Shown piece by piece: positions 7,252 to 62,047 of a stretch of 64,000 bases of DNA. The translations under genes and the position numbers were made by a program. The notes beneath the pieces are model-generated. The model was not told the origin of the DNA and did no database searches. It saw nothing but the letters and a program-made list of their open reading frames with translations. This DNA comes from an uncultured Bacilli bacterium (GTDB lineage Bacteria > Bacillota_I > Bacilli_A > RF39 > UBA660), in the NCBI GenBank assembly GCA_944359625.1, contig CALVSW010000002.1, positions 36,332 through 100,331 of the forward strand, given 5' to 3'. Numbering within the stretch: position 1 is the first letter of the stretch; every line of letters starts with the position of its first letter.

Positions 7252-7256
7252 TTAAT

Positions 7257-7286
7257 AAAAAGCAAATAGAAAATATTTGCTTTTTA
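7257..7286 (+). terminator. Rho-independent terminator of the CotD-like fragment
   Basis: GCAAATA-GAAAA-TATTTGC stem-loop extended by A/T pairs and followed by TTTTT. Confidence 0.75.
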
Positions 7287-7324
7287 TGTGCTAATATAAT
7301 AATATCTTTTTATAGGCGATTTTT

Positions 7325-7705
7325 ATGAAAGTATTAACTATTAAAGAACCTTGGGCAAGTTTAATAATTGAAGGTTATAAAAAATACGAGTTTAGAAGTT
7401 GGAAAACTAATTATCGTGGCAAGATATTAATTCATGCTGGAATGACTATCGAAAAAGATATGTTAAAAAGATTTAAAGATTATAAATTCACTTGTAATCC
7501 TGGTTATATTATTGGCGAAGCAACATTAGTTGATTGTATTTTAGTAGATGAAAAATTTAATGAAGAGTTAAAAAAAATAGATCCAGTTGTTTATGGCAGA
7601 AATAATCATACATGTGCATATGCTTGGAAACTAGAAAATGTAATAAAATATAATCATTTAGTACCAGTTAAAGGAAAATTAGGATTATGGAATTATGAAA
7701 AGTAA
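7325..7705 (+). CDS. ASCH domain protein
   Basis: 126 aa. N-terminal LTIKEPWASLIIEGYKKYEFRSW is typical of the ASCH/PUA-like fold. Confidence 0.75.
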   Translation: MKVLTIKEPWASLIIEGYKKYEFRSWKTNYRGKILIHAGMTIEKDMLKRFKDYKFTCNPGYIIGEATLVDCILVDEKFNEELKKIDPVVYGRNNHTCAYAWKLENVIKYNHLVPVKGKLGLWNYEK

Positions 7706-8839: not shown

Positions 8840-8899
8840 TGGTAATAACTGGCTAAGTAAAAAAATAATAATTACCTATAATAATATTAGGTGATCAAT

Positions 8900-9880
8900 A
8901 TGAAAAAATATCAATATATCATCTTTTTCTTAAGTATACTTCTTTTTCCTACTTTCGTATTTGCTTATTCTGATAAAGTAATACTAGGTGGTCAAAATGT
9001 TGGTATAGAAATAAATACTAAAGGAGTATTAGTAGCTGGTTTTTATAAAGTTAATGGTGTTTATAATGCTAGTAGATTACTAATTGGTGATTATATTACT
9101 AAAGTAAATGATAAAGAAGTAAATACTATTAATGAATTAGTTAAAGAAATAGAAAATAATGTTATCGATAATAAAATAACTATTAGTTATCGTCGTGACA
9201 ATGTAGATTATACTACTATCCTTGATTTAGAATATAAAGATGGCGTACATAAAACAGGTTTATATGTTAAAGATACATTATTAGGTAATGGTACGATTAC
9301 TTATATAGATCCTGAAAGTAAGATATATGGCGCTTTAGGACATAACGTAGTTGAATCTATTACAAATGATAGAATAGAATTAAGAACAGGTAATATTTTT
9401 AAAAGTAGTATAAGTAGTATAACTAAGAGTAGTGATGGTAATCCCGGAAGTATCAATACTAAATTTTATCGTAATTATATTTATGGAAATATTAAAAGTA
9501 ATAGTTTAGTAGGTATATATGGTAATTATGTAGAAGAAATACCTAGTGATACTTTAATTGAAATAGCTAAAATTGATGAAGTAAATTTAGGTAAAGCTAA
9601 AATATACACTACTTTAGCTAATAATGAAATAAAATCATATGATATAAATATATTAAAAATAGATAAAAGTAGTGATATAAAAAATTTCTATTTTGAAGTA
9701 ATAGATAAAGAATTATTAAATAAATCAGGAGGAATAGTCCAGGGTATGAGTGGTTCGCCAATTGTACAAAATAATAAATTAATTGGAGCAGTTACTCATG
9801 TTACTATAGATAATGTAAAAACAGGTTATGGTGTTAGTATTATAACAATGTTAGAGACTGGTGATAAAGAAATAAACTAG
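8900..9880 (+). CDS. spoIVB: SpoIVB peptidase (S55), sporulation signalling protease
   Basis: Signal anchor, PDZ-like region (LIGDYITKVNDKEV), GTITYIDPESKIYGALGH and catalytic-Ser context GGIVQGMSGSPIV. ATG at 8900 preferred. Confidence 0.85.
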   Translation: MKKYQYIIFFLSILLFPTFVFAYSDKVILGGQNVGIEINTKGVLVAGFYKVNGVYNASRLLIGDYITKVNDKEVNTINELVKEIENNVIDNKITISYRRDNVDYTTILDLEYKDGVHKTGLYVKDTLLGNGTITYIDPESKIYGALGHNVVESITNDRIELRTGNIFKSSISSITKSSDGNPGSINTKFYRNYIYGNIKSNSLVGIYGNYVEEIPSDTLIEIAKIDEVNLGKAKIYTTLANNEIKSYDINILKIDKSSDIKNFYFEVIDKELLNKSGGIVQGMSGSPIVQNNKLIGAVTHVTIDNVKTGYGVSIITMLETGDKEIN

Positions 9881-9932: not shown

Positions 9933-10196
9933 ATGGAAAATTTTTTAACTTGGGATATCTTAACTACATATGCTAGTTTTATATCAATTGTTTTTATGAT
10001 AGTAGAATTTATAAAAGATATTAAATTTATAAATAAAATTCCTACAAAGTATCTAAGTTTTACAATAGCATTTATTTTAATAATTATAACTAACTTCGTT
10101 ATGAATACTTTTAAATATATCGATTTAGTATTATATTTCTTATCATCAATATCTATAAGTTTAGGTACGATTGGATTAAGTAAATTTGATAAATAA
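9933..10196 (+). CDS. Small membrane protein (holin-like topology)
   Basis: 87 aa with two or three hydrophobic segments; AGGGA RBS upstream. Function not established. Confidence 0.45.
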   Translation: MENFLTWDILTTYASFISIVFMIVEFIKDIKFINKIPTKYLSFTIAFILIIITNFVMNTFKYIDLVLYFLSSISISLGTIGLSKFDK

Positions 10197-10234
10197 TTAT
10201 TTGCCACCGGATATATGAATCGCTTAACTAATAA

Positions 10235-10432
10235 TACCCAAATGGCTATTATTGGTCCATGTCGCCGTCCTTTTTCGACGTTGGCACCTCTTCTGCTTAT
10301 GGGGTCCATCAGGACGCGACTGGCCTTGCTTACGGATACCTCTGGGTGACCGGCGGCCTTGGCTTGCGTCCGGTAATCAATCTGCAATCGATTGCTCCTA
10401 AAATAATTAATTTAATTAGCAGATTTCGTTGA
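10235..10432 (+). pseudogene. Start-less 3' fragment of a C-type-lectin-fold (DUF1566/FGE-like) variable-protein gene; candidate decayed DGR variable region
   Basis: Open frame YPNGYYWSMSPSFFDVGTSSAYGVHQDATGLAYGYLWVTGGLGLRPVINLQSIAPKIINLISRFR*. The GC-rich core 10253-10375 has only 13 A in 123 nt on the + strand. A 12-nt palindrome GCAATCGATTGC lies at 10384-10395. Confidence 0.5.
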
Positions 10433-10474
10433 CATATAAGTAAAATTAATATTTAATAGTGATTAGGAGTTTTT

Positions 10475-11188
10475 ATGGAAGAAGTAATATATAAAAATAC
10501 ATTAGAATTAATAAAAAAAGAAAAAGAAAGATATAATCGATTATTAAAGTATTTAGAAAGTGCTTATTGTGCTAAAAGTATAGATGAAAATTTAAGATAT
10601 TTAATAAATTTAAAAGATGGGGAATTTACTTCTAGAATAAATTTAAGTAAAACAGAGTTTATTTTAAAATCATATCAACTAGATAAAGACGTATTATTGT
10701 ATGATTACTTAGCTAAATTTTTAGCAAGTAATGAGTTTTATCGTGCTTTAGTTTTAACTAGTAAAAATGTTACAGTTAATAATAGTAATTTTAGTTTATT
10801 AGATAATAAAGTAGATATTAGCTTAAAGCCATGTATTATTAAAGAAATGTTAACAGAAGGGTTTATTAATTCATTATTTGCTGATAATAACTGGACTGGT
10901 AGCCCTTTTATTGTGTATGGAAGTAATAATTTTGAAACTGGTGGTTTTAACACTTTAAATAGTTATGTTGAATATCATGCTCAATCAGGAAAATGTATTT
11001 GTAGAATGAATTTTGATTATAATACTCAATGTATAATTATGTCTGAAGATGGTAATGCGTATAATAAAGTTATAGAAGATTGGATTAATTTAAATTTAGA
11101 AAGTACAGATGATCCAACGATGTTAGTTAAAATGGCAGGGTATTATAATTCAGTAGAAAAATTAAAAAGTTTAGTTCGTAAATTATAG
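10475..11188 (+). CDS. Hypothetical protein
   Basis: 237-aa ORF with RBS AGGAG. TTGACA-17-TTTAAT promoter-like element at 10429-10457. Confidence 0.6.
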   Translation: MEEVIYKNTLELIKKEKERYNRLLKYLESAYCAKSIDENLRYLINLKDGEFTSRINLSKTEFILKSYQLDKDVLLYDYLAKFLASNEFYRALVLTSKNVTVNNSNFSLLDNKVDISLKPCIIKEMLTEGFINSLFADNNWTGSPFIVYGSNNFETGGFNTLNSYVEYHAQSGKCICRMNFDYNTQCIIMSEDGNAYNKVIEDWINLNLESTDDPTMLVKMAGYYNSVEKLKSLVRKL

Positions 11189-26292: not shown

Positions 26293-27993
26293 ATGAATTA
26301 TCAAAGTATCTTAAAAAGGCAAACATCTATTATCTTAATATCTGTAATTGTTATGGTTTTAATTATAATAGGCGTTAGTTATTCATTATTTATGCAAGTA
26401 GATGAATCTAATGATGTACAAGTAGTAGAAAGTGGTACTTTAGTATTATCTTCAAATAAAGGAAATACAATAACTACTAATAATGTTCCATTATCAGATA
26501 TTGAAGGATTAGGTAGTGAAGGATATACTTTTAGTGTTAAAAATAATGGTACATTAGGATATTTATATAATTTATATATAAATAATAAAGCATCATCTAA
26601 TCCATTAGAATATGAATATATTAAAATATCATTTGATGATGGTCCAGTAACAAAACTAAGTGATTTAGAAGTTGATTCAGAAAAAGGATTAATCTTATTA
26701 GCAAATAATTATATTGCACCTGCTAATGAAGAAGGTGATGTTGTAACTCATAATATTAAAGTATGGATAGAAGAAACTGCACCAACAAGTATAATAGGTA
26801 AAAATATATTACTTCAAATTGATATGTATGGAGAAGCAGGTGAAACTTTTTATAAAGATTCTTCAGGAGCTTCAGAGCCAGAATTATATTCAGGTTTAAT
26901 ACCTGTAACTTATAATGATACAAATGAAATAGTAATTGCTGATTTATATAGTAATTGGTATGATTATGATGCTCATGAATGGGCCAATGCAATACTTATT
27001 GACCAAAATAATACAACAACTAAGAATAAGTATTTAAATGCTGATGGAACATATAAATCTGGAACAGTAGTAGAAGAAACAGATATACTACAAATGTATG
27101 TCTGGGTTCCAAGATATAAGTATCAGTTGTTTAATGTTGAAGGTGCAGATACAGAAGCTCAAATGATAAATATTCAGTTTGAAAGTAATACTACATCTAA
27201 ATCAAATGGTACTCAGAACGGAGAATGGTTAACGCATCCAGCGTTTACCTTTGGTACTACCGAGTTAAATGGAATCTGGATAGGTAAATTCGAATCAAGT
27301 AATGATATATCTGATATTAAGATAATACCAAATGTATCTAGTTTACGTAATCAAACCGTTGGTAATATGTTCAATGCTTCCCGTGCCATTGAAACAAATG
27401 CTAAATATGGTTTATCTGCATCTGAAGTCGATACCCATATGATGAAGAATATGGAGTGGGGTGCCGTAGCTTACCTGACAAATTCTAAGTATGGTAGATA
27501 CGAAGCCTCTGGTAGTTGTATTTCATCTGGATGTGAAGTCTTGATTAATAATAATAATAGTTACACCACCGGATGTGCTGGAGATAGCGTATCAGCATCA
27601 TCAAACTCCTCATGTAATGCTTGGAATACATCAACTGGTGTGAATGCCTCTACTACTGGTAACATCTATGGAATATATGATATGAGTGGTGGAGCATGGG
27701 AGTACGTCATGGGAAATTACAATAAAACCGTTGATTCTTCTGGAATCAATTTTGGTAGTATTGATAGTAAGTATTATGATGTATATACTGGTAATGGTAA
27801 GTTAGGTGATGCTACTAAGGAAACTCAGGGTTGGAATAACGATCGCGCGCTCTTTGTCAGTTCGTTTGGTCCGTGGTTCAAGCTCGGTGGCAGCTACGGC
27901 GGTGGCTCTGATGCGGGGGTCTTCGGCTTCAGCAACGGCGATGGCGGTGCGTATTCCGACGTCTCGTGGCGTGTTGTTTTGTCCTCCGAATAG
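26293..27993 (+). CDS. Membrane-anchored surface protein with C-terminal FGE-sulfatase/C-type-lectin-like domain; candidate DGR variable protein
   Basis: N-terminal TM. NMEWGAVAYL and GIYDMSGGAWEYVMG (GxYDMxGNxWEW-like) motifs. GC-rich, A-poor C-terminal tail ending SWRVVLSSE. Confidence 0.8.
   Translation: MNYQSILKRQTSIILISVIVMVLIIIGVSYSLFMQVDESNDVQVVESGTLVLSSNKGNTITTNNVPLSDIEGLGSEGYTFSVKNNGTLGYLYNLYINNKASSNPLEYEYIKISFDDGPVTKLSDLEVDSEKGLILLANNYIAPANEEGDVVTHNIKVWIEETAPTSIIGKNILLQIDMYGEAGETFYKDSSGASEPELYSGLIPVTYNDTNEIVIADLYSNWYDYDAHEWANAILIDQNNTTTKNKYLNADGTYKSGTVVEETDILQMYVWVPRYKYQLFNVEGADTEAQMINIQFESNTTSKSNGTQNGEWLTHPAFTFGTTELNGIWIGKFESSNDISDIKIIPNVSSLRNQTVGNMFNASRAIETNAKYGLSASEVDTHMMKNMEWGAVAYLTNSKYGRYEASGSCISSGCEVLINNNNSYTTGCAGDSVSASSNSSCNAWNTSTGVNASTTGNIYGIYDMSGGAWEYVMGNYNKTVDSSGINFGSIDSKYYDVYTGNGKLGDATKETQGWNNDRALFVSSFGPWFKLGGSYGGGSDAGVFGFSNGDGGAYSDVSWRVVLSSE
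27853..27978 (+). repeat. DGR variable-region-like repeat (VR1)
   Basis: 126 nt, 60% G+C, 12 adenines. Aligns codon for codon with 59818-59943, with 26 mismatches at template adenines and 15 at other bases. Confidence 0.75.
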
Positions 27994-28007
27994 CTGTGAA
28001 ACAGCTA
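27991..28007 (+). promoter_or_regulatory. Hairpin spanning the stop codon, immediately 3' of VR1 (candidate DGR target-recognition inverted repeat)
   Basis: TAGCTGT-GAA-ACAGCTA: 7-bp perfect stem with a 3-nt loop, beginning at the TAG stop. Confidence 0.5.
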
Positions 28008-28088
28008 TTTTGCACATTTGCACAGAGAAAAAGAAATTTATAACGTGTATAAATAAAAACTATAGTGAAACAAAAGGGCGAGACGTTT

Positions 28089-49898: not shown

Positions 49899-50590
49899 AT
49901 GGGTTGTATTGATAGAAATAATAAATTTTGTTGTGCTCCTTGTATGCGATTATATCCCGTAGTTGGACCTGCTGATCAGCTGGAAATGATGGAATACCAG
50001 GTGATATTGGCCTAACCGGTCCAACGGGACCTGCCGGAAGTATTGAAGCTAACCCATATAATTTATACGTATCATCTAGTGCTCCAGCTGGTGGTGATGG
50101 TAGTCAAGCAAGTCCTTTTCAAACTATTGTAACCAAATAAATTTAAATATTCCAGAGCTTATTTTAAAAGGTTATGCAGGTAGTGATATATTATTAGAAA
50201 ATTCCGTTGTACCTTTTTTAGTCAGTGCAGATAATGTAACGATTAAAGAATTTAATATGACAAGTGATAATCCGTACCCAGTAGAATTTATTCAAGTAGC
50301 TGGAAATAATGATCAAATTTTAGATAATGAAATTTATGGACCAGAACAAGCTGGAGATTCTTCTAACTGGGTAGTTAATAGAGGCTTTGTTACCCAAGGA
50401 AGTGCGACTAATTTATTAGTACGTAATAATATATTTTATAGTTTACGCCAACTTGTCTATTTAAATCCCAATTCCACCAAATGCGGTAGATATTGCTTTA
50501 TTATCTGGGACTAAAACTGGTGCACCATATGATCCAACTAGTGCTTTAACAGCAAATAATAGTAATGCTACAATTAGTGATCAACGATAA
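49899..50590 (+). pseudogene. Decayed collagen-like-repeat / right-handed beta-helix (pectin-lyase-fold) surface protein gene
   Basis: ATG at 49899, then Gly-X-Y triplets readable only after a 1-nt frameshift (GPAGSAGNDGIPGDIGLTGPTGPAGS), then GGDGSQASPFQTI. Downstream beta-helix pieces lie in three frames with stops. Confidence 0.6.
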
Positions 50591-58592: not shown

Positions 58593-59163
58593 AATAAGAA
58601 TACTGGAAAAACTCCTAGATTAATAGATGAATGGGAAATTGCTCCTAAGTTATGGGACGCAGTTAGATTCGAAGTGGATCATCGAGGAGTTGAAGGCCAA
58701 TTTATTTTAACTGGATCATCAGTTCCTGCTAATATGCAAAATGTTTTCCATACCGGCACTGGTAGATTTAGTTGGCTCTTAATGCGACCAATGAGTTTAT
58801 ATGAGTCTGGTGAATCAACTGGAGAAGTTAGTTTATTTAGTTTATTTGATAATTCAACAAAAATAAGTGGTATTAATAAATATACTTTAGAAGATATAGC
58901 GTATTTATGTTGTAGAGGTGGTTGGCCAAGGAGTATAGATATGGATAAAGATATTGCCTTAGACCAAGCATATGATTATTATGAAGAGTTTTAATTTAGA
59001 TATTTCAAGAGTAGATAATGTGACTAGAAATCCAGAAAGAGCAAAACACTTAATGAGGAGTTATGCTAGAAATATTGGAAGTCAAGCATCTAATGAAACA
59101 TTAAGAAATGACATGATTTCTAATGATTTAAATACATCAAACAAGAAATATATAGTCAAATGA
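58593..59163 (+). pseudogene. 5'-truncated, frameshifted AAA/DUF4143 ATPase remnant
   Basis: Frame opens after a TAA with …LIDEWEIAPKLWDAVRFEVDHRG…ILTGSS…. A frameshift lies near 58990. Homology to the 52.5-kb copy (RGGWP.SI, ERNPE, SYARNI) is lost after about 59140. Confidence 0.6.
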
Positions 59164-59817
59164 TGGTATACAATATAATGCAATCAATAACAAATGATTT
59201 AGATACTGAAATAGACCAGAGAAAATATAAATATACAATGAAAATTAATATTAATATGGCGATCGGTTTTGTAAAAAGATTTTTATTAAAAATATTATTA
59301 GAAGATAATGAAGAAAAAATGCAGAAATTATCAGATTTATTATTTGAAAACATTTTAAAGAATATAGTTCCAATTAGAAATGATCGACATTATAAAAGAG
59401 ATAATGTTCGTAAGAATAAACATCCTATAAATAAAAGGAAATCTATATAAAATTATTATATGTTTATAAACATTTCTTTTTGTCGTAGTAAAATTTACTA
59501 ATTCATATAAAAAGGAAAAAGATAAATTAAATTATCATAATTTATCTTTCCTTAAGTTAATGACATTGAGTTAAACTAGTGGATTTTTATTTTATTAGCA
59601 TTTAAAGGGCATTTAATTCATGCTAATAGTAATAATTTTATTGTTAGTATTTTAAGAAAAATATTAGAAGTAGATGGTATTGTTAAAGTTATTTATTTAA
59701 CTAGTAAATTTGAAGATGCTAGTATTAAAAAGACTATTGAAGATGAAATAAATAGAATGGTATAATTTAATTGCTTATAAAATAAATAAGCTGGGATTAG
59801 GTTATTTAAACGTGAAC

Positions 59818-59943
59818 TTCGTCAATTCGAACAATCCGTGGCTCAAACGCGGTGGTAACCACAACAATGGCACCAATGCAGGCGTGTTCAACTTCAATAA
59901 CAACAATGGTAATGCGAATTCCAACAATTCGTTCCGGGTTGTT
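59818..59943 (+). repeat. DGR template-repeat-like segment (TR), orphan
   Basis: 126 nt with 38 adenines; 16 of 42 codons are AAY. Reads FVNSNNPWLKRGGNHNNGTNAGVFNFNNNNGNANSNNSFRVV. Aligns without gaps to VR1 at 27853-27978. Confidence 0.7.
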
Positions 59944-60252: not shown

Positions 60253-60546
60253 ATGAAAACTTTGACAAATGGGATTATTAATGTTCATGTTGATCCTAAA
60301 GATAAAGAAGATGCTACAATTATTTTAAAAGATTTGGGATTAAATATGAGTACTCTAATAAATATGACTTTAAAACAAGTTATTAAAAGAAAAGCTATTC
60401 CTTTTGATGTTGCAATACCGTCATATAATGATAGATTAGAAAATGCTTTAAAAGAAAGTAAAGTTATTGAAAAAGAATATAAGAGTGGTACAAGAAAAGG
60501 CTATAACAATGTTAATGAAATGATGGAGTCTATTATAGATGATTGA
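60253..60546 (+). CDS. RelB/DinJ family antitoxin
   Basis: 97 aa; …VDPKDKEDATIILKDLGLNMSTLINMTLKQVI is a ribbon-helix-helix DinJ-like N-terminus. Overlaps the toxin gene by 8 nt. Confidence 0.8.
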   Translation: MKTLTNGIINVHVDPKDKEDATIILKDLGLNMSTLINMTLKQVIKRKAIPFDVAIPSYNDRLENALKESKVIEKEYKSGTRKGYNNVNEMMESIIDD

Positions 60547-60844
60547 TTTATCTTTAAATACTAAATGTAAAATTGATTATACTAGTGAGTTCAAAAGACA
60601 GCTTAAGAAAGTTATAAAACAAGGTAAAGATATTAATATATTGTTAGAAGTGATTAGTAAATTAGCTAATCAAGAGGAATTAGATTTGAAATATAAAAAT
60701 CATCATTTGATAAATGATAATACTTATAGAGATTGTATGGAATGTCATTTAAAACCTTATTGGTTACTAGTATATAAATATATTGATAATAATTTAGTAT
60801 TGTTACTTGTTACAACAGGTAGCCATAGTGACATCTTAGAGTAG
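60539..60844 (+). CDS. yafQ: YafQ/RelE family mRNA interferase toxin
   Basis: …FKRQLKK…HHLINDNTYRDCMECHLKPYWLLVYKYIDNNLVLLLVTTGSHSDIL matches the YafQ signature (H…CH..PD.LLIY…TGSHSDL). Confidence 0.8.
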   Translation: MIDLSLNTKCKIDYTSEFKRQLKKVIKQGKDINILLEVISKLANQEELDLKYKNHHLINDNTYRDCMECHLKPYWLLVYKYIDNNLVLLLVTTGSHSDILE

Positions 60845-60872: not shown

Positions 60873-60907
60873 AAAGTATGATAGAATACTATTAAGGAAT
60901 GTGTATT

Positions 60908-62047
60908 ATGAAATTGAGTGATATTAAAAATAATTTAGATCATGATGAAATATATTCTAATTATGCATGTAAAAACAAAGATGCGATTAGGTTTAATGAA
61001 GATAAAGAAGATATTAGACCTCCTTTTTTACATGATAGTGATAAAATTATTTATTCACTTGCATATACTAGGTATATCAATAAAACTCAAGTTTATTCTT
61101 TAGTTGATAATGATAACATAAGTAAGCGAATGACGCATGTGCAGATGGTTAGTAAAATTGCTCGTACGATTGGTAGAGCTTTAGGGTTAAATGAAGATTT
61201 AATTGAGGCTGCAAGTCTTGGGCATGATTTAGGACATACCCCACTAGGCCATGTTGGTGAATCTATTTTAAATAAGATAAGTTTAGAGGTAGGAGAAGGT
61301 TACTTTAATCATAATATTCAAAGTGTTCGCAATTTAATGTTTATTGAAAACATGGGAAATGGTTCTAACATTACTTTACAAGTATTAGATGCGATTATGT
61401 GCCATAATGGTGAATTAGAGTTAGAATTATATAAACCTATAAAGAAGACTAAAGAAGAATTTTTAAAAGAATATTATGATTCTTATAAGTATAAAGATAA
61501 AGTAAAAGAATTAATTCCGATGACACTAGAAGGATGCGTAGTAAGAATTAGTGATTTAATTGCCTATTTAGGTCGCGATGTCGAAGATGCTATTAGATTA
61601 GGTAAGTTAAAAAGAAGTGATATACCAAGTTCGATAACTAATATCTTAGGTAATACTAATAGTAGTTTAATTAATACTTTTGTATTAGATATTATATCTA
61701 ATAGTACTTCTAAATATATAAAAATGAGTAAAGAAAAATTTGCAGTATTAAAAGAATTAAAGAAGTTTAATTATGAGAATATATATAATAAAGCTAATGA
61801 TAAAGATATAATTGATAAATGGGAAAATATGTTTAGGGTAGTATTTAATTACTATTTAAATGATTTAGAAAATAAAAATATTGATAGTAATATATATATT
61901 TATTTTTATAAGTATAAAAATGATTATTATAAGAATAATACTTCTTTAAAAAGAGTAGTTATAGATTATATAGCAGGTATGACTGATGAATTTTTTATAA
62001 AAGAATATAAAAATATTATAAGGAGGAAGAAAGATGAAAAAGAGTGA
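60908..62047 (+). CDS. dGTPase-like HD-domain triphosphohydrolase
   Basis: RMTHVQMVSKIAR…GHDLGHTPLGHVGE and DY(I)AGMTDEF motifs. ATG at 60908 after AAGGAA. Confidence 0.85.
   Translation: MKLSDIKNNLDHDEIYSNYACKNKDAIRFNEDKEDIRPPFLHDSDKIIYSLAYTRYINKTQVYSLVDNDNISKRMTHVQMVSKIARTIGRALGLNEDLIEAASLGHDLGHTPLGHVGESILNKISLEVGEGYFNHNIQSVRNLMFIENMGNGSNITLQVLDAIMCHNGELELELYKPIKKTKEEFLKEYYDSYKYKDKVKELIPMTLEGCVVRISDLIAYLGRDVEDAIRLGKLKRSDIPSSITNILGNTNSSLINTFVLDIISNSTSKYIKMSKEKFAVLKELKKFNYENIYNKANDKDIIDKWENMFRVVFNYYLNDLENKNIDSNIYIYFYKYKNDYYKNNTSLKRVVIDYIAGMTDEFFIKEYKNIIRRKKDEKE

Follow-up and report, generated by a model that had tools for sequence, protein, structure and literature searches.

A GC-rich, adenine-poor island in an AT-rich Bacilli genome is probably a gene-less variable region of a remote DGR

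Background

GC-rich islands of AT-rich genomes are often non-coding RNAs (ncRNAs). The stretch of DNA analysed here, 64 kb from an uncultured Bacilli bacterium (hereafter the window), has a GC content of 24.1% as a whole, and its sharpest GC island (10196-10442) reaches 62% GC over 100 nt. Just one other island exceeds 60% GC, namely VR1 at 27773-28049, which contains the variable region (VR) of a target gene of a diversity-generating retroelement (DGR). The question raised by the first island is whether it is a structured RNA or is derived from a protein-coding gene. The initial annotation took it for the decayed, start-less remnant of a second DGR target, diversified from a template repeat (TR) other than the one in the window. 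In the present study, we compared the island with its relatives in protein, genome and metagenome collections.

Results

The island and its parts

A recount confirmed the composition, reading frame, stop codons and palindrome coordinates that had been given for the island. The + strand of 10253-10375 (123 nt) contains 13 A, 37 C, 37 G and 36 T, and one + frame is open from 10235, directly after a TAA at 10232-10234, to a TGA at 10430-10432, with the translation YPNGYYWSMSPSFFDVGTSSAYGVHQDATGLAYGYLWVTGGLGLRPVINLQS... The absence of a start codon with an RBS was also confirmed: no RBS-preceded start was found for the island frame, and the sole upstream ATG of the family (10215, MNRL...), which lacks an RBS, is out of frame with the VR in the window because the segment 10229-10243 lacks 1 nt relative to most copies. 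Each of the two conserved flanks (a 27-mer and a 28-mer) occurs once in the window, against 0 matches expected from shuffling, and both were found again, exact, in unrelated contigs. The parts of the unit are as follows, its bounds being set by where the homology to copies at other loci stops.

10201..10389, + strand: whole unit, 189 nt, a truncated 3' fragment of a probable DUF6273-like DGR target gene (alignment of 12 copies, exact flank recurrences, hhalign 99.3%)
10201..10255, + strand: conserved 5' flank, outside TR coverage; encodes FATGYMNRLT..Q(N)GYYW in other copies
10232..10234, + strand: TAA opening the frame of the initial annotation; results from a 1-nt frameshift in the 5' flank
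10256..10373, + strand: putative VR core, 118 nt, adenine-depleted and GC-rich; homologous to the TR at L024:383-500
10361..10373, + strand: GGCTTGCGTCCGG, where the TR/VR homology ends on the 3' side; G/C-rich and the same in every copy and TR
10374..10389, + strand: VR-specific 3' flank TAATCAATCTGCAATC; TRs have ATTCCTACTACG... here, and homology to other copies stops at 10389
10384..10395, no strand: palindrome GCAATCGATTGC across the truncation junction; constant in every same-locus contig covering the junction, missing from copies at other loci

In its position, GGCTTGCGTCCGG resembles the G/C stretch of the IMH, which marks the 3' boundary in retrohoming, and the divergence between TR and VR starts directly after it.

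Genomic neighbourhood

The unit is flanked by an 87-aa hydrophobic ORF (9933-10196), itself located after spoIVB (8891-9880, Peptidase_S55), and by a 237-aa ORF. A near-consensus promoter (TTGACA, 17 nt, TTTAAT) with an AGGAG RBS (10429-10474) lies ahead of the 237-aa ORF and begins about 40 nt past the unit. The same promoter is present 3' of the units in L001, a contig of a sister species, and therefore the unit occupies a conserved intergenic slot. The relatives found via SpoIVB are uncultured Bacilli MAGs and 'Mycoplasma sp. CAG:956', which we take to be RF39-like.

At the same spoIVB-downstream site, L001 has two tandem units (L001:7017-7205 and 7252-7437) and no 87-aa ORF. The first unit (c1) is GC-rich, and the second (c2) is AT-normal, Asn-rich and superficially TR-like, with 31/92 non-A mismatches. 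In contrast to the window copy, c2 is an example of a dead, drifted copy. It was also considered as the TR for c1 and ruled out, since the mismatches between c1 and c2 are not A-specific.

In two contigs (L030 and L032), the sequence ...GTGACTTAGTAAAAACTAAGTCCTTTTTTTAAATTTTTAAAAACTGTCCGGTTATAAGTT is present about 115-65 nt upstream of the unit, and the same sequence abuts the unit at a different locus (L020:40-100). In L030 and L032 this sequence flanks a DDE_Tnp_1 gene, in place of spoIVB and of the 87-aa ORF, only the last 12 nt of which are left. A DDE transposase is also close to the unit in L025. One candidate mechanism for the spread of the units is rearrangement mediated by IS elements.

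Structured RNA

A structured ncRNA on either strand would fit the sharpness of the GC island, and the minus strand folds with z = -2.4 against shuffles, although the single-sequence z-scores of the island (-2.4 and -1.5) are modest. However, a scan of the whole window against Rfam 15 gave no match at the gathering threshold, and a permissive scan of 10100-10520 gave a chance match to mir-137 (E = 0.34, 18.6 bits against a gathering score of 56.7). The consensus folds of 11 copies contain 0 compensatory pairs on the minus strand and 2 on the plus strand, and the covariation term penalises the fold, so that covariation is lacking on both strands. Furthermore, the variation is distributed according to the TR adenines and the first two codon positions, not according to helices. 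The ncRNA reading is effectively refuted, its probability being close to nil, and the preference of the initial annotation for a VR remnant over an ncRNA was sound.

Protein family of the frame

A phmmer search with the 65-aa frame over 1.84 billion representatives gave 13 matches. Twelve of them are fragments 49-99 aa long; the remaining one, P0010 (599 aa), has two repeats with the same motif at the end of each. The 12 fragments have a common layout, with a conserved FA(T/N)GYMNRLTYLYQNGYYWSMSP, about 30 hypervariable residues, and a conserved GLRPVINLQSD. After two word-indexed searches the fragment family consisted of about 85 sequences, all of 49-123 aa and nearly all singleton 90% clusters, and the contigs bearing them are mostly shorter than 1 kb.

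A Pfam search with three frames of the island gave no match, and neither the 65-aa frame nor a frame-corrected 64-aa version matched PF19789 (DUF6273) at E <= 10; within the fragment family, the best score for this profile was that of P0007 (E = 0.065). However, hhalign aligned the fragment profile with a full-length family of 3,916 proteins over the last ~97 columns, with 99.3% probability and E = 1e-20, and 13/30 full-length members match PF19789 (best E = 1.2e-9). The AlphaFold2 model of a full-length relative, P0102 (337 aa, pLDDT 83.5), matches predicted viral DUF6273 proteins with E of 1e-6 to 1e-7. Its matches in the PDB, to the Lcl C-terminal domain and C-type-lectin-like domains, all have E > 1 and are not significant, and those to DUF1566-type structures are weak (8q4e at E = 1.2; BFVD DUF1566 proteins at E >= 0.025). 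We therefore rejected DUF1566 or the Lcl C-terminal domain as the identity of the frame, for which there was no Pfam profile match and weak structural resemblance alone.

DUF6273 has been described as C-type-lectin-like, and the VRs of gut-phage DGRs map to its C-terminus (PMC10743442, PMC11792537). The homology of the frame to full-length proteins begins only about 60-90 residues before their C-terminus, and the island fragment corresponds to the last third or so of the domain, which is too short for the domain fold. By profile comparison, the island frame is thus shown to be the C-terminal piece of a predicted DUF6273-like (C-type-lectin-like) protein whose gene body is gone. The initial annotation had proposed a C-terminal piece of a DUF1566/CLec-type domain, to be compared with DUF1566, FGE-sulfatase and DUF6273-type profiles; the C-terminal piece of a putative lectin-like domain stands, but the family is DUF6273-like instead of DUF1566, and it is reached through the full-length family and not by a direct Pfam match.

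The N-terminal part of the VR1 target (26329-26820) resembles the N-terminal region of P0036 (residues 17-179), a protein with DUF6273 and Ig-like parts, with 28% identity over 172 aa (tblastn, E = 6.5e-12 in a small local database). An N-terminal module may be common to the two families of DGR targets.

Template repeats and adenine-specific differences

The island is not alignable to the TR at 59.8 kb, as had been stated, and no cognate TR was found anywhere in the window with any base allowed opposite A, the best off-target having at least 26 non-A mismatches in 117. The different template that was accordingly called for by the initial annotation does exist in related contigs, where cognate-type TRs are present at L021:~495-612, L024:383-500 and L027:~2695-2813. 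Although these TRs come from another sample and the strain identity of the contigs is uncertain, the island differs from the L024 TR at 15/25 A sites and 6/93 non-A sites (Fisher p = 2.7e-8), and from the L021 TR at 17/27 A sites and 7/91 non-A sites (p = 1.0e-8). As an in-cis control, VR-A of L024 differs from its own TR at 11/25 A sites and 1/93 non-A sites (p = 4.9e-8). Across nine copies, 26/27 TR-A columns and 25/91 non-A columns are variable, and of the 12 A's that the window core retains, 10 are at TR-A sites. The adenine depletion and the high GC content are explained by these TRs, because most TR A's have been replaced and the non-A positions of the TR are mostly G/C. Since the island differs from the TR almost only at TR adenines, the alignments indicate that it is very probably a DGR variable region, and the proposal of a VR of a second DGR target was borne out by this concentration of mismatches.

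The L024 TR is 118 nt long and Asn-codon-rich, shares GGCTTGCGTCCGG with the VRs and diverges just past it. The order of the L024 cassette is VR-A, a perfect 13-bp hairpin, TR, VR-B and bAvd, and in L023 another ORF begins after bAvd. VR-A keeps the complete tail, ...SGGVGTSDNPYVVVTE followed by a stop, and VR-B is a mini-ORF of 78-102 aa with AT-rich non-coding DNA in front. The bAvd gene, assigned by Pfam (E = 6.6e-12), adjoins VR-B in both L023 and L024. The first 35 residues of the ORF after bAvd are seen, and this ORF is RT-like by position only. L021 and L027 have the VR-A, hairpin and TR portion of this layout with other TR alleles. At L024:477-524, the TR 3' end and the first TR-specific bases (AATGGCTTGCGTCCGGATTCCTAC) are tandemly duplicated.

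No YxDD-containing RT-like ORF was found in the 64-kb window; the ORF at 60899-62047, considered as a possible RT, is an HD phosphohydrolase. Because the window is without an RT, the RT on which the two VR families depend is encoded elsewhere. VR1 (~27850-27980, at the 3' end of ORF 26293-27993) and TR1 (~59815-59943) are a genuine DGR pair 32 kb apart. TR1 has no adjoining RT or avd; its neighbour is a fragmented AAA_14/DUF4143 gene (58674-59450). On the downstream side of TR1 are ORF 60253-60546, a YafQ-family toxin ORF (60539-60844, Pfam) and the HD phosphohydrolase; from its position, ORF 60253-60546 looks like the antitoxin partner of the YafQ-family ORF. A search for a shared RT-recognition element in the downstream flanks of TR1 and TR2 gave no similarity above shuffles.

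Polymorphism at the locus

An exact look-up of the 87-aa ORF retrieved six contigs from other samples, all ending inside the unit or at its last base, and a look-up of the downstream 237-aa ORF retrieved contigs reaching into or across the unit. The eight same-locus sequences have six different cores (window = L033; L015; L029; L034; L030 = L032; L031), among which those of L029 and L034 differ at three positions. The upstream DNA of the same-locus contigs is 98-100% identical, and the 3' junction, including the palindrome, is identical in all seven contigs from the 237-aa ORF look-up. The flank is 98.9-100% identical, whereas the core differs at 24/118 positions between the window and L015. 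Among the alleles, 22/25 TR-A columns and 22/93 non-A columns are variable (p = 5e-9). The locus is still polymorphic, with six cores between near-identical flanks. The description of the second target as decayed therefore holds for the gene body but not for the VR core, which is near the TR and polymorphic in the population.

The 18-nt 5' flank CTAATAATACCCAAATGG, which is 1 nt short, is present in the window and L031, and a 1-nt variant of equal length is present in L034; these three have different cores, and thus the core changes irrespective of coding integrity. The 19-nt in-frame type of 5' flank is present in L033, L029, L030 and L015. In L033 the core of the window is joined to this in-frame flank, and the occurrence of the same core with different flanks shows that recombination shuffles flank and core. 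L015 and L012a share the block cgtgggttcattc.gtacgcgcctggctttgctgacggctac across different loci. Such blocks common to several loci, together with the signatures of at least two TR alleles, indicate that gene conversion or multiple TRs contribute. Two alleles are common to different samples (that of the window and L033, and that of L030 and L032), and turnover at the locus is episodic at best.

Dispersed fragments in relatives

Copies of the unit follow unrelated genes, namely spoIVB (window and L001), ftsW/spoVE (L012, L022 and L027), a sigma factor gene (L013) and an Impact_N gene (L025 and L026). Their N-terminal extensions and C-terminal tails are locus-specific and their 3' truncation points vary; by eye, we estimate about 25 or more junction classes. 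In most copies, the homology to full-length proteins never goes upstream of the ...IYAGG... position. No Shine-Dalgarno sequence was found before any candidate start of the units, whereas the neighbouring genes have AGGAG. Among the 1.84 billion representatives and 5.8 billion clusters, no full-length gene was found to carry this VR or the 5' flank of the unit. Scaffold L028 alone has a longer body; there the unit is joined across ten N's to about 80 more DUF6273-like residues; therefore, fuller targets exist or existed in some lineages. A blastn search of the island against phage and plasmid collections gave no match, and exact and gapped pattern scans of IMG/VR and JGI metagenomes gave 0 matches; the family was found only in ENA, Logan and GTDB data. 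The initial annotation had inferred a once larger multi-target DGR network. A network is indeed indicated by the relatives, but it does not belong to the past only, given about 85 fragments, one of which is directly upstream of avd.

Tandem arrays of units are present at L012:4072-4640 and L021:1-120, with a conserved AT-rich spacer of about 130 nt (TGACATTTTGATAATCAAATAATTATG...CAATTGCAAAGTCATCAAATTC). The tail of the Impact_N-adjacent copy (L025:7220-7434 and L026:7179-7393) is ...NLQANGEIIKK. Three contigs of 10-20 kb, representing at least two samples, have this copy without any difference; it assembles cleanly and appears to be static, a useful contrast to the polymorphic loci.

Palindrome and hairpin

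The homology with other copies ends at ...CTGCAATC (10389), where the other copies go on with TGATGTCACGATA... and the window goes on with GATTGC. Because this break is inside the palindrome, GCAATCGATTGC arises at the truncation junction and is specific to the locus. It had been suggested that the palindrome mirrors the hairpin after VR1 (27990-28008); as a junction product absent from the copies elsewhere, it does not. The family has a different hairpin, of 13 bp with a 4-nt loop (GCTCTCCACCTGA-CTCC-TCAGGTGGAGAGC in L024), located at L024:257-286, L021:~378-408 and L027:2516-2545, about 10-25 nt past the stop of the copies with a full-length tail. Between L024 and L027 it shows a compensatory change from C:G to G:C, and it could be a DGR cis-acting hairpin or a T-less terminator. 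At the window unit this hairpin is absent, as is the full-length tail, and only the junction palindrome is present.

Discussion

The explanation that we favour, with high confidence, is that the island is a remote, gene-less VR of a DGR. An RT whose gene is outside the window would copy TR RNA into cDNA, making errors specifically at adenines, and this cDNA would replace the core by homology, via the invariant GGCTTGCGTCCGG boundary. Such replacement has presumably been repeated at this locus, frameshifted alleles included, and recombination among the many copies would add mosaicism. The fragment would thereby persist as a bystander substrate of a DGR. It most likely makes no functional protein, as it has no RBS, is frameshifted and comprises about a third of the domain. 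DGR activity in this genome is suggested by related contigs whose strain identity is uncertain. Counted against this explanation are the 6/93 non-A mismatches that remain against the best TR, the lack of a TR of this family and of an RT in the window, the mere 35 residues of the RT-like ORF, the missing 13-bp hairpin, and the alleles, as well as one copy elsewhere, that recur unchanged in different samples. Furthermore, the alleles suggest at least two TR variants and mosaic blocks, and part of the allelic variation may be gene conversion rather than fresh retrohoming.

If gene conversion or recombination, together with old polymorphism, accounted for all of the allelic differences, the island would be a fossil VR that is no longer a substrate of retrohoming. 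Several observations are in the direction of this possibility: L015 and L012a have blocks in common at different loci, the VR of the window is identical to that of L033 despite the different 5' flanks, the Impact_N-adjacent copy is the same in three contigs from at least two samples, and the unit is without the conserved hairpin. However, variation at the locus is strongly concentrated at TR-A columns (22/25 against 22/93), and the core has only 6/93 non-A differences from a TR of another sample, whereas the drifted copy c2 of L001, AT-normal and with 31/92 non-A mismatches, shows a different appearance. Moreover, conversion from other diversified copies would still deliver the product of the same DGR. 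We consider a fossil VR rather unlikely, although it is the alternative to be taken most seriously.

Another possibility is that the units are functional mini-targets, that is, that the ORFs of 50-120 aa (MNRLTYLYQNGYYWSMSP-VR-GLRPVINLQSD...) are expressed as small diversified proteins, or that they serve as a bank of silent cassettes feeding an expressed gene. In favour of it, the ~85 relatives are without exception short and not joined to a full-length body, even the copy that immediately precedes avd. The MNRL ATG is a conserved part of the unit, and the tandem arrays in L012 and L021 have conserved spacers. Nevertheless, we regard this possibility as quite improbable. The neighbouring genes have AGGAG, and there is no Shine-Dalgarno sequence at any candidate start of the units. 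The N-termini, the C-terminal tails and the 3' truncation points vary by locus, and the fragment is only the last third or so of the domain. Frameshifted alleles of this locus recur in several samples and still vary, and the open frame of the VR is not evidence of selection, because it is guaranteed by the AAY-codon design of the TR. Finally, no expressed full-length recipient gene was found. A related idea, which we think unlikely, is that the fragments are no debris but represent a distinct DGR lifestyle, a swarm of minimal gene-less targets of ~190-270 bp that are kept rewritten as a lectin-tip reservoir for gene conversion or as small diversified peptides. The units of such a swarm might spread by retro-duplication of target transcripts, or by the IS elements that abut two units. 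If the idea were true, the copies would define the natural minimal cis requirements for retrohoming; the window copy keeps 16 nt past the G/C boundary and has no hairpin.

Antigenic variation from silent cassettes is known for pilS in Neisseria, vls in Borrelia and MgPar in Mycoplasma genitalium. These systems also have many promoter-less partial copies with variable cores, conserved flanks and mosaic sharing. In the present family, however, it is the TR adenines and not a fixed repertoire that set the variation. No expression locus was found, and a cassette with Avd and an RT-like ORF is physically linked to copies.

The gene-less VR that we favour has parallels among DGRs. DGRs with multiple or remote target VRs are known, for example, in Treponema denticola, Legionella and cyanobacteria (PMC4891356, PMC7517822). 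In these, as here, one TR/RT system serves VRs far from the cassette, with adenine-specific mismatches, AAY codons in the TR, and a G/C-rich 3' boundary common to TR and VR. The present case differs in that the VR is not inside a complete gene, the TR and RT are not within 64 kb, and an estimated 25 or more truncated intergenic copies exist. In Pelodictyon phaeoclathratiforme BU-1, one of four VRs is outside any identifiable coding region (PMC3521204). This orphan is likewise a DGR-type VR without a target ORF, but it is a single unexplained case, whereas here the same situation is the rule for a whole family, with population evidence of change. DUF6273-domain DGR targets of gut phages include the tentaclins and small single-domain targets (PMC10743442) and those of Faecalibacterium prophages (PMC11792537). 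They share with the present fragments the domain family (by profile and predicted fold), the location of the VR at the C-terminal end of the domain, and gut Firmicutes as the setting. However, they are intact phage receptor-binding proteins, whereas the window copy is chromosomal, between spoIVB and housekeeping-type genes, is cut to the last ~60 residues, and has no match in IMG/VR or phage databases. The mechanism, mutagenic retrohoming by a DGR, is thus known, and it is the substrate that is unusual: dispersed, truncated and apparently non-coding VR fragments of DUF6273 type, remote from TR and RT.

What is new is a family in which orphan VRs are the rule, with population evidence of turnover, the earlier orphan VRs being isolated cases (PMC3521204). 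The DGR appears to keep rewriting the VR after truncation and frameshift of the target. If so, retrohoming would take no account of whether the target is still coding, and orphan VRs at remote sites can survive as GC-rich 'ghosts'. Sharp GC-rich, adenine-poor islands in very AT-rich genomes can therefore be DGR VRs, which matters for ncRNA screens based on GC islands. Copies with different 3' truncation points, with and without the hairpin, constitute a natural deletion series; a comparison of which copies still vary would render the cis requirements of mutagenic retrohoming testable in metagenomes. The units are also a hazard for assembly: six contigs of other samples break off within the unit, and contigs bearing fragments are mostly shorter than 1 kb. 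DGR surveys that require a VR next to an RT would miss the fragment family.

The window has a third GC-rich island (49919-50128, 53% GC), which contains collagen-like Gly-X-Y coding stretches, for example ccggtccaacgggacctgccgga. The reading frames around it, at 49.9-50.6 kb, are broken, and the region looks like a disrupted gene.
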